A stretch of DNA of 64,000 nt from Escherichia coli (lineage in GTDB: Bacteria; Pseudomonadota; Gammaproteobacteria; Enterobacterales; Enterobacteriaceae). Under the pieces are notes generated by a model. It saw only the letters and a program-made list of their open reading frames with translations, did no database searches and was not told where the DNA came from. Positions 1 to 45,798 of this stretch are shown here, in pieces (the stretch's first letter is position 1; every line of letters begins with the position of its first letter). Position numbers and translations under genes: made by a program. The stretch lies in NCBI RefSeq assembly GCF_003334385.1, contig NZ_QOWN01000013.1. One strand, 5' to 3'.

Positions 1-182
1 CAGAACGGCTATTCCATTCGAAGGTGAGCGCCATAATGCACTTGATGACGCCCGTTACCAGGCAAAATACGTTTCAGCTATCTGGCAAAAACTGATCCCA
101 AATCAGGCTGATTTTTAATGTTCAACCCCGGTCGTTGCCCACCAGCTATAGTGGCGGCGACCATGATTAGCGAACGACGCTC

Positions 183-431
183 ATGGCAAGACTTATTCTG
201 CTCACTGAGTGGGCAAAAGAGGAATTCAGTGAACCGGTCCCTACTCCGAGTACGTTAAGTAAATACGCTAAAGCCGGAATGATATTTCCTCTCCCCAAAA
301 AAGTTGGAAGACGCTGGCGAGTGGATCCGCAAGCTCGCTTTGTCGGAATGGTAAACAAGCCGGAGGTGATCGCCACAGATCACCCTGCTTTGAAGAGGAT
401 ACTGGAAGATGGCGCGCCCGCGAAAATATAA
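183..431 (+). CDS. Excisionase-like small DNA-binding protein (Xis family)
   Basis: 82-aa ORF directly upstream of and overlapping the integrase start. It is basic, with an LTEWA...IFPLPKKVGRRW motif resembling lambda Xis (LTLQEW...IFPPPVKDGRE). Confidence 0.55.
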   Translation: MARLILLTEWAKEEFSEPVPTPSTLSKYAKAGMIFPLPKKVGRRWRVDPQARFVGMVNKPEVIATDHPALKRILEDGAPAKI

Positions 432-1539
432 AACCGATGTTCCGGGATTATCTCCGTATTTTGACAAAAGAAATAACAAAGTTTACTGGCGTTACAGGCA
501 TCCCATAACAGGCAAAAATCACGGTCTCGGCAGTATTGACCAGAAACTGGCAGAAACTATTGCAGCAGAAGCGAACAGCCGTCTTGCCCGGCAGCAAATG
601 GAACAAATGCTCAGTCTGCAGGAGAAAATTATTAGTGATACCGGCGGTTCATCAACCGTTACCATTTTTCTGAATAATTACAGAAAAATTCAACAGGAAA
701 GATATGAAAACGGCGAGATCAAACTCAACACGCTGAAACAGAAAGCGGCCCCTCTCAGGGTATTTGATGAACGTTTTGGCACCAGACCGTTAGATGCCAT
801 AACCGTAAAAGATGTGGTATCAGTACTGGAAGAGTACAAGGCCAGAGGACATAACAGAATGGGACAAATTTTCAGGAAAGTACTGATCGATGTTTTCCGG
901 GAAGCTCAGCAAACGGGCGATGTCCCGCCAGGCTTTAACCCTGCAGAATCGGCAAAAAAACCGCAGGTGCGGATATCAAGACAGCGACTGACTTTTGATG
1001 AGTGGATGATGATTTATAACGCAGCGGAAAAGAATGGTTACTTTTTACAGCGCGGTATGCTGCTGGCACTGATGACAGGCCAGCGCCTTTCAGATATTTG
1101 CAAAATGCAATTTTCGGATATCCGGGATGGTTATCTTCATGTCGAACAGCAAAAAACAGGAACCCGGATTGCCATCCCTCTGGCTCTGCGTTGCGATAAA
1201 TTAAATCTCACCCTGGATGATGTAGTGTCATCCTGCCGCGATTGCGTTCTTAGTCCGTGGCTATTGCACCACCATCACGCGAAAGGGACAGCTAAGCGCG
1301 GCGGGATGGTTAAGCCAGCAACATTAACCGTTGCATTTAAAAAAGCCCGGGATTCTGTGGATTACAACTGGCGTGCTAATGGCACCCCACCCTCTTTCCA
1401 TGAGCAGAGATCTTTATCAGAGCGATTGTTCAGAGAGCAGGGGGTTGATACCAAAATTTTGCTAGGCCATTCGAATCAAAAAATGACCGATATTTACAAC
1501 GATGTACGCGGTAAGGAGTGGAAAAAACTGGTCATTTGA
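409..1539 (+). CDS. int: Phage-type tyrosine integrase (lambda Int family)
   Basis: 376-aa ORF whose C-terminal catalytic region reads ...GQRLSDICKMQFSDIRDGYLHVEQQKTGTRIAIP...HEQRSLSERLF...LLGHSNQKMTDIYNDVRGKEW, collinear with lambda Int (R-K-H-R-H-Y signature region). Confidence 0.85.
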   Translation: MARPRKYKTDVPGLSPYFDKRNNKVYWRYRHPITGKNHGLGSIDQKLAETIAAEANSRLARQQMEQMLSLQEKIISDTGGSSTVTIFLNNYRKIQQERYENGEIKLNTLKQKAAPLRVFDERFGTRPLDAITVKDVVSVLEEYKARGHNRMGQIFRKVLIDVFREAQQTGDVPPGFNPAESAKKPQVRISRQRLTFDEWMMIYNAAEKNGYFLQRGMLLALMTGQRLSDICKMQFSDIRDGYLHVEQQKTGTRIAIPLALRCDKLNLTLDDVVSSCRDCVLSPWLLHHHHAKGTAKRGGMVKPATLTVAFKKARDSVDYNWRANGTPPSFHEQRSLSERLFREQGVDTKILLGHSNQKMTDIYNDVRGKEWKKLVI

Positions 1540-1545
1540 TGACCA

Positions 1546-1579
1546 GTTTTGCAGAAGAGTTTTGCAGAGGTTTTGCAGA
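1546..1579. repeat. Three direct repeats of GTTTTGCAGA (1546-1555, 1559-1568, 1570-1579) between the int stop and the ompW stop
   Basis: Seen directly in the sequence. Their position next to the int 3' end matches where arm-type Int-binding sites sit in lambda attP (P' arm). Confidence 0.45.
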
Positions 1580-1584
1580 GAAAA

Positions 1585-2238
1585 TTAAAAACGATATCCT
1601 GCCGAGAACATAAACACCCACGGGTCAAGGCGTACATTGTCGCTATAACTGCCTTTAGCCAGTTTACGACCATCAGATTTATACTTCGCGGTGGTATCGA
1701 TATCCATGTACCACACTGACATGTTAACCAACCAGTCACGGTTAATCAGATAATCAACCCCCACCTGCCCGGCAGCTCCCCAGGAATCTTTCAGACTGAG
1801 ATCGGAAAGCCCTGCCTCTTTGCCATGATCGTTAAATCCATTATCAAAGAAGGTGGTGTAGTTAATACCTGCCCCAACGTAAGGACGGAATTTGCTGCTG
1901 GCATCACCAAAATACCACTGCGCCATCAGTGTTGGTGGCAGATGATGAACGGTTGCAATATCGCCGGTCGCCCGGGTGCCGATTTTATGGCGGAACGGCG
2001 TCGCTGCCAGTAATTCCACACCAATGTTGTCGGTCGCCATATAAGTAAACGTAAGGCCCAGTTGCGTGTTATTGGTCACGCTGAATCCACCCAGACTTCC
2101 TAACGTACCACCAGCACCTTCTGTTGGACGTACGGTTGCAGAACCTGCACGCATAAAAAATTCGCCTGCTTCATGCGCAAAGGCACTGCCAGAGAGAAGA
2201 GTTGTTACTGCCAAAGCCGCCACTGTTAACTTTTTCAT
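1585..2238 (-). CDS. ompW: Outer membrane protein W
   Basis: 217-aa ORF with signal peptide MKKLTVAALAVTTLLSGSAFA and OMP C-terminus ...FSAGYRF, in conserved synteny with yciCBA-tonB. Confidence 0.93.
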   Translation of the reverse strand: MKKLTVAALAVTTLLSGSAFAHEAGEFFMRAGSATVRPTEGAGGTLGSLGGFSVTNNTQLGLTFTYMATDNIGVELLAATPFRHKIGTRATGDIATVHHLPPTLMAQWYFGDASSKFRPYVGAGINYTTFFDNGFNDHGKEAGLSDLSLKDSWGAAGQVGVDYLINRDWLVNMSVWYMDIDTTAKYKSDGRKLAKGSYSDNVRLDPWVFMFSAGYRF

Positions 2239-2341
2239 ATCCGCTCCGTCGTTATGGTTATAAAAACGTGACGAATATACCTACATTGGAGTAACAAATG
2301 ATCCTACATAGATCACATTACATATGATAATTCACCCTTTA

Positions 2342-2400
2342 TTGATCTGGATTAATTTAGAAGTTGCATTGAGAATCCTGGTTAATGTGATTTAAATCAA
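2342..2400 (-). promoter_or_regulatory. ompW promoter region with two FNR-type sites (TTGATctggATTAA at 2342-2355; GTGATttaaATCAA at 2387-2400)
   Basis: Both match TTGAT-N4-ATCAA with one mismatch each and their centres are 45 bp apart. ompW is a known FNR-activated gene. Confidence 0.45.
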
Positions 2401-2594
2401 TTTTTAAATATTTTCGCTACGCAAATATTAACTCGGTCGCCACTTGCCGCGATTTGCCCATGCCTGAAGGCCAGCAATTACCTCCGCTTTACAAAGATAT
2501 GCTTTTCCATACAAGACCTGATGCTGCCACCCGAGGCTTAACCAGGGTACAATTGCCCGCTAATTAACACCTGCATAAAACTCAAGGAGAGTGC

Positions 2595-3338
2595 ATGTCT
2601 ATCACGGCGCAGTCCGTATACCGTGACACCGGAAATTTCTTCCGTAATCAATTTATGACCATTCTGTTGGTATCGTTGCTATGTGCGTTTATCACAGTGG
2701 TGTTAGGGCATGTTTTCTCACCCAGTGATGCACAGCTTGCGCAGCTCAATGACGGCGTGCCCGTTAGCGGCAGTAGTGGGTTGTTCGACCTGGTTCAGAA
2801 TATGTCACCGGAACAGCAACAAATTTTGCTGCAGGCTTCAGCGGCGTCCACTTTTTCAGGATTAATCGGTAACGCCATTCTCGCCGGAGGCGTAATATTA
2901 ATTATCCAGCTGGTGTCTGCGGGTCAGAGAGTCAGTGCGCTGCGAGCTATTGGTGCCAGTGCGCCGATATTGCCAAAGTTATTTATTCTGATTTTTCTGA
3001 CTACCCTTTTAGTACAGATTGGCATCATGCTGGTGGTCGTTCCGGGAATTATCATGGCCATTTTACTGGCCCTGGCACCGGTGATGTTGGTACAGGACAA
3101 AATGGGCGTTTTTGCCTCGATGCGTAGCAGTATGCGGCTGACTTGGGCGAATATGCGTCTGGTGGCACCCGCAGTACTGAGCTGGTTGCTGGCAAAAACA
3201 CTGTTGCTGCTTTTTGCCTCTTCTTTTGCCGCATTAACCCCGGAAATTGGTGCCGTACTGGCGAACACCTTGAGCAACCTGATTTCAGCCATATTGCTCA
3301 TCTATCTGTTCCGCCTGTATATGTTGATTCGCCAATAA
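2595..3338 (+). CDS. yciC: UPF0259 inner membrane protein YciC
   Basis: 247-aa multi-TM ORF in conserved K-12 synteny. Confidence 0.9.
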
Positions 3339-16461: not shown

Positions 16462-16937
16462 GGTTAGCTCCGAAGCAAAAGCCGGATAATGTTAGCCATA
16501 AATAAGGTTGAAAAGACGCGCTGACAATACGCCTTTTGACAGCATTTTTCACCTCCTAACTACTTAAAATTGCTATCATTCGTTATTGTTATCTAGTTGT
16601 GCAAAACATGCTAATGTAGCCACCAAATCATACTACAATTTATTAACTGTTAGCTATAATGGCGAAAAGCGATGCTGAAAGGTGTCAGCTTTGCAAAAAT
16701 TTGATTTAGATCACGTAATCAGTACCCAGAAGTGAGTAATCTTGCTTACGCCACCTGGAAGTGACGCATTAGAGATAATAACTCTAATGTTTAAACTCTT
16801 TTAGTAAATCACAGTGAGTGTGAGCGCGAGTAAGCTTTTGATTTTCATAGGTTAAGCAAATCATCACCGCACTGACTATACTCTCGTATTCGAGCAGATG
16901 ATTTACTAAAAAAGTTTAACATTATCAGGAGAGCATT

Positions 16938-35580: not shown

Positions 35581-35594
35581 TTGATAACGATCAA
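35581..35594 (-). promoter_or_regulatory. FNR site of the narG promoter
   Basis: Perfect TTGATaacgATCAA, centred about 98 bp upstream of the narG start codon; consistent with FNR-dependent activation of narGHJI. Confidence 0.6.
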
Positions 35595-37455: not shown

Positions 37456-37507
37456 TTGATGTAAATCAAACGATAAGATAACTTTATCTATCATTGATAT
37501 TTATCAT
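37456..37507 (-). promoter_or_regulatory. narK promoter with two FNR-type sites (TTGATgtaaATCAA 37456-37469; TTGATatttATCAT 37494-37507)
   Basis: Site centres are 38 bp apart, matching the known -41.5/-79.5 arrangement of the narK promoter. Confidence 0.55.
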
Positions 37508-44604: not shown

Positions 44605-44889
44605 CAGTTATATCTCCTCCGATGACGGTAATCGGGGGAGATAATATAAATTCCTGCTTATTGTATTTCTTCATACTACCTGGACAGGTCGTTAATCAGA
44701 ATTGCGAGCCTGTACCACACCCTGCACGAAACCACTGCAACAGCTGTTGAAAAGCCGGAATGTACTCTTCATTGCAAACATTTCAGGGATGAAGTGAAGA
44801 TGAATTGCGACGTAGTATCCACACCAAGCCGGCGTTATCCGGTGAGGCGCAATGTTGCGGGGCTTTATCCCTGGTGGCATTGGTTGCTG

Positions 44890-44959
44890 GAAAGAGAAAC
44901 CCCCCGCACGTTGAGAGGTAAAACCTGACAACAAAACGGGGGCTAATCTTGAAACCAGA
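44890..44959 (-). ncRNA. rdl: Rdl antisense RNA (type I antitoxin), copy 1; coordinates approximate
   Basis: Minus-strand sequence GUCUGGUUUCAAGAUUAGCCCCCGUUUUGUUGUCAGG...CGUGCGGGGGGUUUCUCUUU ends in a hairpin plus U-run and has a TTGTAA-17-TATTCT promoter upstream. Matches my recollection of Rdl RNA. Confidence 0.5.
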
Positions 44960-45006
44960 CACTTCAAGAATAGCCGCAAAATGTTGTCATTACAACAAGG
45001 CGGCTA

Positions 45007-45114
45007 TATGACGCTCGCGCAGTTTGCCATGATTTTCTGGCACGACCTGGCAGCACCGATCCTAGCGGGAATTATTACCGCAGCGATTGTCAGCTGGTGG
45101 CGTAACCGGAAGTA
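45007..45114 (+). CDS. ldr: Ldr type I toxin peptide (35 aa), copy 1
   Basis: MTLAQFAMIFWHDLAAPILAGIITAAIVSWWRNRK, followed by a rho-independent terminator (GGCCGCAGGggtaacagCCTGCGGCC + T-run). Confidence 0.85.
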
Positions 45115-45425
45115 AGGTGAAAACGGGCGTCAGGCTGCCGTGATGGCAATATGCGCCCGAAACCGGCCGCAGGGGTAACAGCCTGCGGCCATTTTTGTCT
45201 TTATCTCTTCCACAAGTAAATATTGGCAACCCGAGCTGGAAGCATCATCCAGAGCACTCATGAAACGACTGCAACAGCTGTTGAAAAGCCGGAATGTACT
45301 CTTTATTGCAAACATTTCAGGGATGAAGTGAAGATGAATTGAGACGTAGTATCCACACCAAGCCGGAATTATCCGGTGAGGCGCAATGTTGCGGGGGCTT
45401 TATCCCTGGTGGCATTGGTTGCTGG

Positions 45426-45495
45426 AAAGAGAAAACCCCCGCACGTTGAGAGGTAAAACCTGACAACAGAACGGGGGCTAATCTTGAAACCAGAC
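45426..45495 (-). ncRNA. rdl: Rdl antisense RNA, copy 2; coordinates approximate
   Basis: Same arrangement as copy 1, with a few substitutions. Confidence 0.5.
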
Positions 45496-45542
45496 ACTTC
45501 AAGAATAGCCGCAAAATGTTGTCATTACAACAAGGCGGCTAT

Positions 45543-45650
45543 ATGACGCTCGCGCAGTTTGCCATGATTTTCTGGCACGACCTGGCAGCACCGATCCTAG
45601 CGGGAATTATTACCGCAGCGATTGTCAGCTGGTGGCGTAACCGGAAGTAA
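45543..45650 (+). CDS. ldr: Ldr type I toxin peptide (35 aa), copy 2
   Basis: Peptide identical to copy 1; terminator hairpin downstream. Confidence 0.85.
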   Translation: MTLAQFAMIFWHDLAAPILAGIITAAIVSWWRNRK

Positions 45651-45798
45651 GGTGAAAACGGGCGTCAGGCTGCCGTGATGGCAATATGCGCCCGAAACCG
45701 GCCGCAGGGGTAACAGCCTGCGGCCTTTTTTGTATCCGGCACCCATGAAAAAAGTCTTAACGCAGAACGCTAATACTTTATTTTTCAAGCAAAAAAGA

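Follow-up and report, generated by a model that had tools for sequence, protein, structure and literature searches.

Two FNR sites upstream of Escherichia coli ompW almost certainly correspond to its characterised activating and repressing operators and are unevenly conserved across Enterobacteriaceae

FNR-regulated promoters related to ompW

Among the promoters with which ompW can be compared, ansB carries tandem activators, with FNR near -41.5 and CRP near -91.5, and narG and narK are activated by FNR and NarL together. FNR sites that are more distal than the class I positions can still activate transcription. By the definition in the literature, class I FNR promoters have their site at -61.5 or -71.5 and are activated through the alpha C-terminal domain (alpha-CTD) of RNA polymerase, and in class II promoters the FNR site lies near -41.5.

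Other parallels are found in cydAB and focA-pflB, to which Xiao et al. (PMC4886647) and Myers et al. (2013) themselves likened ompW. Like ompW, they have at least two sites for FNR with opposite effects, activating and repressing, come under the additional control of ArcA and H-NS, and reach a transient (microaerobic) peak in the aerobic-to-anaerobic shift; for ompW, the opposition of the two sites is published data (PMC4886647). The positions of the sites differ, however: cydAB has one at -53.5 (Myers et al. 2013), whereas the -41.5-type position at ompW is that of CRP.

The ompW promoter itself has been dissected in E. coli K-12 by Xiao et al. (2016, Front Microbiol 7:799; PMC4886647). Their 5' RLM-RACE gave one product, which maps a single transcription start to a G located 29 nt 5' of the ATG and agrees with an earlier genome-wide map. 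When FNR D154A was used in gel shifts, the promoter yielded two shifted bands, a single one when either site was mutated, and none when both were (PMC4886647). An ompW-lacZ fusion, the mRNA (RT-qPCR), and the OmpW protein (western blot) all rose approximately 3-fold anaerobically, and this rise was lost in an fnr deletion (PMC4886647). The two sites act in opposite directions: mutating the one at -81.5 lowered lacZ expression approximately 3-fold, to the level of the fnr deletion, and abolished anaerobic induction, whereas mutating or deleting the one at -126.5 raised ompW expression 2-3 fold; the double mutant showed the phenotype of the -81.5 mutant alone (PMC4886647). After an anaerobic shift, ompW expression peaked at about 10 minutes and then fell, unless the -126.5 site was deleted (PMC4886647).

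Several other regulators meet at the same promoter. H-NS represses ompW aerobically and is counteracted by FNR, and ArcA repression requires FNR (PMC4886647). CRP activates from -42.5, where deletion of TGTGA is sufficient to remove the effect of galactose on the lacZ fusion, and NarL represses from -18.5 in nitrate (PMC4886647). In the ChIP-seq data of Myers et al. (2013), ompW has an FNR peak at -126.5 and is listed as under direct partial repression. A footprinting paper from 2026 uses the ompW promoter as a well-annotated benchmark for footprinting software and reports that its sites are in RegulonDB (PMC13058942).

The ompW locus in the window

The window (the whole stretch of E. coli DNA that was analysed, 64,000 nt) carries ompW on its minus strand, divergent from yciC. 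Its parts are given below, with promoter numbering based on the published start (window position 2267) and not on a sigma-70 scan.

1585..2238, minus strand: ompW coding sequence, 217 aa, from the list of open reading frames and annotated as ompW in matching genomes; the A of the ATG is at 2238
2267, minus strand: ompW transcription start (+1), a G; published 5' RLM-RACE places it at a G 29 nt 5' of the ATG, and the window base is G
2274..2279, minus strand: -10 hexamer TATATT (-12 to -7), assigned by position from the published start; invariant in 24 Enterobacteriaceae promoters
2278..2293, minus strand: NarL site TACTCCAATGTAGGTA, centre -18.5, nitrate repression; exact match to the published site
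2302..2317, minus strand: CRP site TGTGATCTATGTAGGA, centre -42.5, a class II-type position; exact match to the published site
2342..2355, minus strand: proximal FNR site TTAATCCAGATCAA, centre -81.5, activating; 9/10 consensus, identical to the published site in sequence and position
2387..2400, minus strand: distal FNR site TTGATTTAAATCAC, centre -126.5, repressing and dependent on the proximal site; 9/10 consensus, identical to the published site and in agreement with the ChIP-seq assignment
2595-3338, plus strand: yciC, divergent from ompW and followed by yciB, yciA, and tonB

The promoter is identical to that of K-12 MG1655 at all 221 nt compared, a segment that begins at about -184 and ends shortly after the ATG, and this identity, together with the gene order ompW / yciC-yciB-yciA-tonB, marks the locus as orthologous. 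Set against the K-12 promoter (PMC4886647; RegulonDB as reported in PMC13058942), the window has the same FNR, CRP, and NarL sites at the same positions, and the promoters do not differ. The functional evidence comes from K-12 rather than from this strain, the two being identical at the level of promoter DNA. A sigma-70 consensus scan of positions 2150-2700 found no promoter on the ompW strand; it is uninformative for that strand because the ompW -35 element is poor, as expected of an activator-dependent promoter.

On the plus strand, positions 2342-2355 read TTGATCTGGATTAA and positions 2387-2400 read GTGATTTAAATCAA. Each differs at one position from TTGATNNNNATCAA, the inverted repeat TTGAT-N4-ATCAA, and thus agrees with FNR-site consensus at nine of the ten specified positions. 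The motif centres (2348.5 and 2393.5) lie 110.5 and 155.5 nt 5' of the ompW ATG and are 45 bp apart, so the coordinates and distances given by an earlier, sequence-only reading of this DNA (two FNR-type sites about 110 and 155 bp upstream, with 45-bp spacing) hold. Both 14-mers are, letter for letter, the FNR sites of Xiao et al. (PMC4886647). We are therefore almost certain that they are the two FNR operators already characterised in the ompW promoter of E. coli, where their centres lie at -81.5 and -126.5 relative to the single mapped start. That FNR controls ompW by way of precisely this pair is already known and was published in 2016. The FNR dependence that the sequence-only reading had proposed is confirmed by the published gel shifts, the approximately 3-fold fnr-dependent anaerobic induction, and the ChIP-seq peak; the checks that it suggested, 5' RACE and ompW-lacZ expression in fnr+ and fnr- strains, had already been published with clear results.

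The same reading had offered a class II (-41.5) or a dual-site arrangement. The dual-site part stands, but the class II part does not: the FNR sites lie at -81.5 and -126.5, and -42.5 is taken by CRP. [quoted passage not shown] The proximal site is 20 bp (about two helical turns) 5' of the class I position at -61.5 and on the same helical face, -71.5 being the other class I position. The layout resembles tandem promoters of the ansB type in that an activator near -42 is combined with a second site of the CRP/FNR family about four helical turns upstream. The roles, on the other hand, are swapped, with CRP promoter-proximal and FNR upstream at ompW.

The window also contains narGHJI, narK, and narXL (at about 31.7-39.5 kb). 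Over its whole length, eight matches with at most one mismatch to TTGAT-N4-ATCAA were found, against 3.07 ± 1.66 expected from shuffles. Placed by means of the annotated genome of strain ML35, the six matches other than those at ompW are 5' of narG, narK (two), and adhE and inside purU and ycgV; the count thus reflects real FNR targets, considering the matches 5' of narG, narK, and adhE. Like ompW, narG and narK are FNR targets with consensus sites 5' of the gene. Their nitrate response is the opposite, since NarL represses ompW. The proposal that ompW belongs to the same anaerobic regulon as the nar genes is therefore right for the shared FNR control and wrong for nitrate. The correction of the class II assignment and the contrast in nitrate response between ompW and the nar genes of the same window are two of the uses of this analysis.

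Some details of these other matches can be added. A perfect match to the FNR consensus at 35581-35594 is 98.5 nt 5' of the narG ATG, and the pair 5' of narK (37456-37469 and 37494-37507) combines a perfect match with a single-mismatch one at a spacing of 38 bp. The match at 16701-16714 is about 230 nt from the adhE ATG. Those at 26901 (purU) and 61689 (ycgV) are within coding sequence and look like chance.

Conservation of the promoter parts

Within E. coli, the ompW-yciC intergenic region was present in 5423 of 5426 complete genomes. In the variants sampled, the most divergent one included, substitutions fall outside both FNR 14-mers, whereas the flanking bases vary.

For a wider comparison, loci in other genera were located with a degenerate pattern taken from the ompW coding sequence and hence independent of the sites. 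A scan of species-representative genomes, in which the pattern missed the closest genera (Salmonella, Klebsiella, and Citrobacter), gave 26 loci from Enterobacter, Cedecea, Buttiauxella, Atlantibacter, Phytobacter, Lelliottia, Kosakonia, Huaxiibacter, Dryocola, and another lineage. Four of these were set aside (two truncated or lacking an identifiable start, one with a short upstream region, and one needing a corrected start codon). The remaining 22, a second E. coli, and the window itself make up the 24 promoters compared.

The proximal FNR site is present in all 24 promoters, agreeing with the consensus at 8-9 of 10 positions, and its centre keeps a distance of 107.5-117.5 nt to the ATG, mostly 110.5. 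The CRP site likewise keeps its place throughout and forms a stronger palindrome, TGTGATC-N6-GATCAC, in most promoters outside E. coli. The -10 hexamer TATATT is invariant (24/24). These results agree with published work, in which conservation in Salmonella, Yersinia, Klebsiella, and Enterobacter is noted for the site at -81.5 and for that of CRP (PMC4886647), and the footprinting study from 2026 is likewise in line with the fixed positions of the activating FNR site, CRP site, and -10 element. On this comparative evidence, these three elements form an ancient, position-locked module across Enterobacteriaceae.

The distal site behaves differently. In full form (at least 8 of 10 positions, at a spacing of 44-45 bp) it was found in only 7 of the 24 promoters, namely the two E. 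coli, three Atlantibacter, Phytobacter, and UBA7338, whereas its left half, AAAATTGAY (TTGAY), is kept at 44-46 bp in 16. Because the distal site is poorly conserved outside Escherichia, the logic of activating and then repressing may be lineage-specific. With the repressing site complete in few lineages, the microaerobic expression peak may be a later addition. This comparison (proximal site, CRP site, and -10 element in all 24 promoters against a full distal site in seven) is what is new here.

Two sequence differences between E. coli and the other genera were observed alongside. A block directly 3' of the proximal FNR site, TRAATGTTAAATTA, is almost invariant in the other genera (loci L006-L031), whereas the E. 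coli version has diverged to TAAAGGGTGAATTA (window positions of about 2325-2341, minus strand). In the CRP site of E. coli ompW, the downstream half is degraded, TGTGATCTATGTAGGATCAT, as opposed to the near-perfect palindrome of most other Enterobacteriaceae.

Alternative readings of the two sites

Could the two motifs simply be chance matches in AT-rich intergenic DNA? The ompW-yciC region has 40% G+C, one-mismatch matches do arise by chance, and two of the eight matches in the window sit within the coding sequences of purU and ycgV. However, two matches with at most one mismatch occurred in just 15 of 20,000 dinucleotide-preserving shuffles of this 356-bp region, neither site varies within E. 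coli and the proximal one is conserved across genera, and binding and mutational evidence for them has been published (PMC4886647), which makes coincidence vanishingly improbable. It is also extremely improbable that the proximal motif is a class II site at -41.5, which would call for a start about 69 nt 5' of the ATG, near position 2307. Most FNR-activated promoters are class II, and a -10-like hexamer, TATCAT, does lie downstream of the proximal site (at about 2323-2328, minus strand). As the only good candidate for an alternative -10 element, it was nonetheless rejected: it would place the proximal site near -31.5 instead of -41.5, and it is not conserved across genera. Furthermore, the one RACE product starts 29 nt 5' of the ATG and matches the earlier genome-wide map (PMC4886647), and the conserved TATATT and the CRP site at -42.5 fit that mapped start.

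The remaining alternatives concern the distal site, for which repression of ompW by FNR is the preferred reading. It might be a mixed CRP/FNR site that CRP also binds, with an effect that depends in part on the carbon source. Its two halves are CRP-like (GTGAT) and FNR-like (TTGAT), and plus-strand positions 2386-2401, TGTGA-TTTAAA-TCAAT, agree with the CRP core TGTGA-N6-TCACA at eight of ten positions; the published CRP gel-shift fragment spanned only -120 to -3 and so did not include it (PMC4886647). We consider this quite unlikely, given that the TGTGA deletion at -42.5 by itself removes the galactose effect (PMC4886647), that FNR binding, as seen in gel shifts and ChIP-seq, is enough to explain the site, and that CRP binding data for it were looked for and not found. 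The distal site could also serve, or once have served, the divergent side of the intergenic region, which ompW shares with yciC. Positions 2478-2567 (plus strand) encode the last 29 codons of a YkgJ-family cysteine-cluster gene, annotated by NCBI as a pseudogene in other E. coli, and an intact CxxCxxCC gene of 133-156 aa (as the ORFs were called) occupies the same position, divergent from ompW, in Atlantibacter, Phytobacter, Enterobacter sp. Ag1, and Enterobacter sp. R1. In Atlantibacter, the ATG of this gene is 267 nt 5' of the ompW ATG and about 112 nt from the distal FNR-like site; the two FNR-like sites are almost mirror-symmetric, with about 111 nt between each of them and the start codon on its side, so that the distal site stands to the YkgJ-family gene as the proximal one does to ompW. 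An intact divergent ykgJ-like gene was accordingly considered as the cause of distal-site conservation, but site quality does not support it: the distal site is weaker (6-8 of 10) where the gene is intact than in E. coli, which lacks the gene and has 9/10. These weaker sites make a divergent-gene origin very unlikely, as does distance, the yciC ATG being 201.5 nt away from the distal site and the single promoter-like match on the yciC strand about 166 nt away. In addition, mutation or deletion of the site changes ompW expression directly (PMC4886647), and the ChIP-seq peak was assigned to ompW (Myers et al. 2013). A broader version, in which the distal site would not be solely an ompW repressor site but also an operator that the divergent YkgJ-family gene shares or has left behind (or, as a variant, one that CRP also binds, one half being TGTGA), is unlikely as well. 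If it were true, an orphaned activator site would have been turned into a brake on ompW in E. coli.

How the promoter most probably works

Taking the distal site as an FNR operator that represses ompW, the published data and the positions of the sites can be combined into a scheme. According to the published results, an active FNR dimer binds the proximal site as oxygen falls and raises ompW transcription approximately 3-fold (PMC4886647); the authors of that study proposed that FNR activates here by relieving the silencing that H-NS imposes. Once active FNR becomes more abundant, the distal site takes up a second dimer and ompW expression is lowered again, a step that needs the proximal site and is accompanied by FNR-dependent repression by ArcA. 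The outcome is a transient expression peak during the shift to anaerobiosis. CRP at -42.5 makes the class II-type activator contact, and NarL at -18.5 shuts the promoter down in nitrate.

Geometry allows some refinement of this scheme. As -81.5 is two helical turns 5' of -61.5, FNR at the proximal site may also act in a class I-like manner via the alpha-CTD of RNA polymerase, together with CRP at -42.5 and in addition to H-NS displacement. The 45-bp spacing between the two FNR sites corresponds to about 4.3 turns, so the two FNR dimers do not share a face of the helix.

Prophage at the 3' end of ompW and other features of the window

The other end of ompW differs from that of K-12. OmpW has 217 aa here and 212 aa in K-12, the 3' end of the gene being altered by a prophage in this strain; the two proteins are 94% identical, with the differences confined to residues 185-199. 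A phage integrase gene (409-1539) adjoins the 3' end of ompW, and excisionase and exonuclease genes are annotated beside the integrase in matching genomes. It looks like a prophage (window positions 1-1584) has inserted in the end of ompW and supplied a replacement C-terminus (3' end of ompW, window positions 1585-1700). Positions 1-2600 of the window are matched over at least 80% of their length in 1706 of 5426 complete E. coli genomes.

Two sets of repeated segments were assigned by mapping onto strain ML35. Those at about 27700-28500 are tandem tyrT tRNA-Tyr/RtT units, and those at 44700-45750 are three tandem copies of the Ldr type I toxin.
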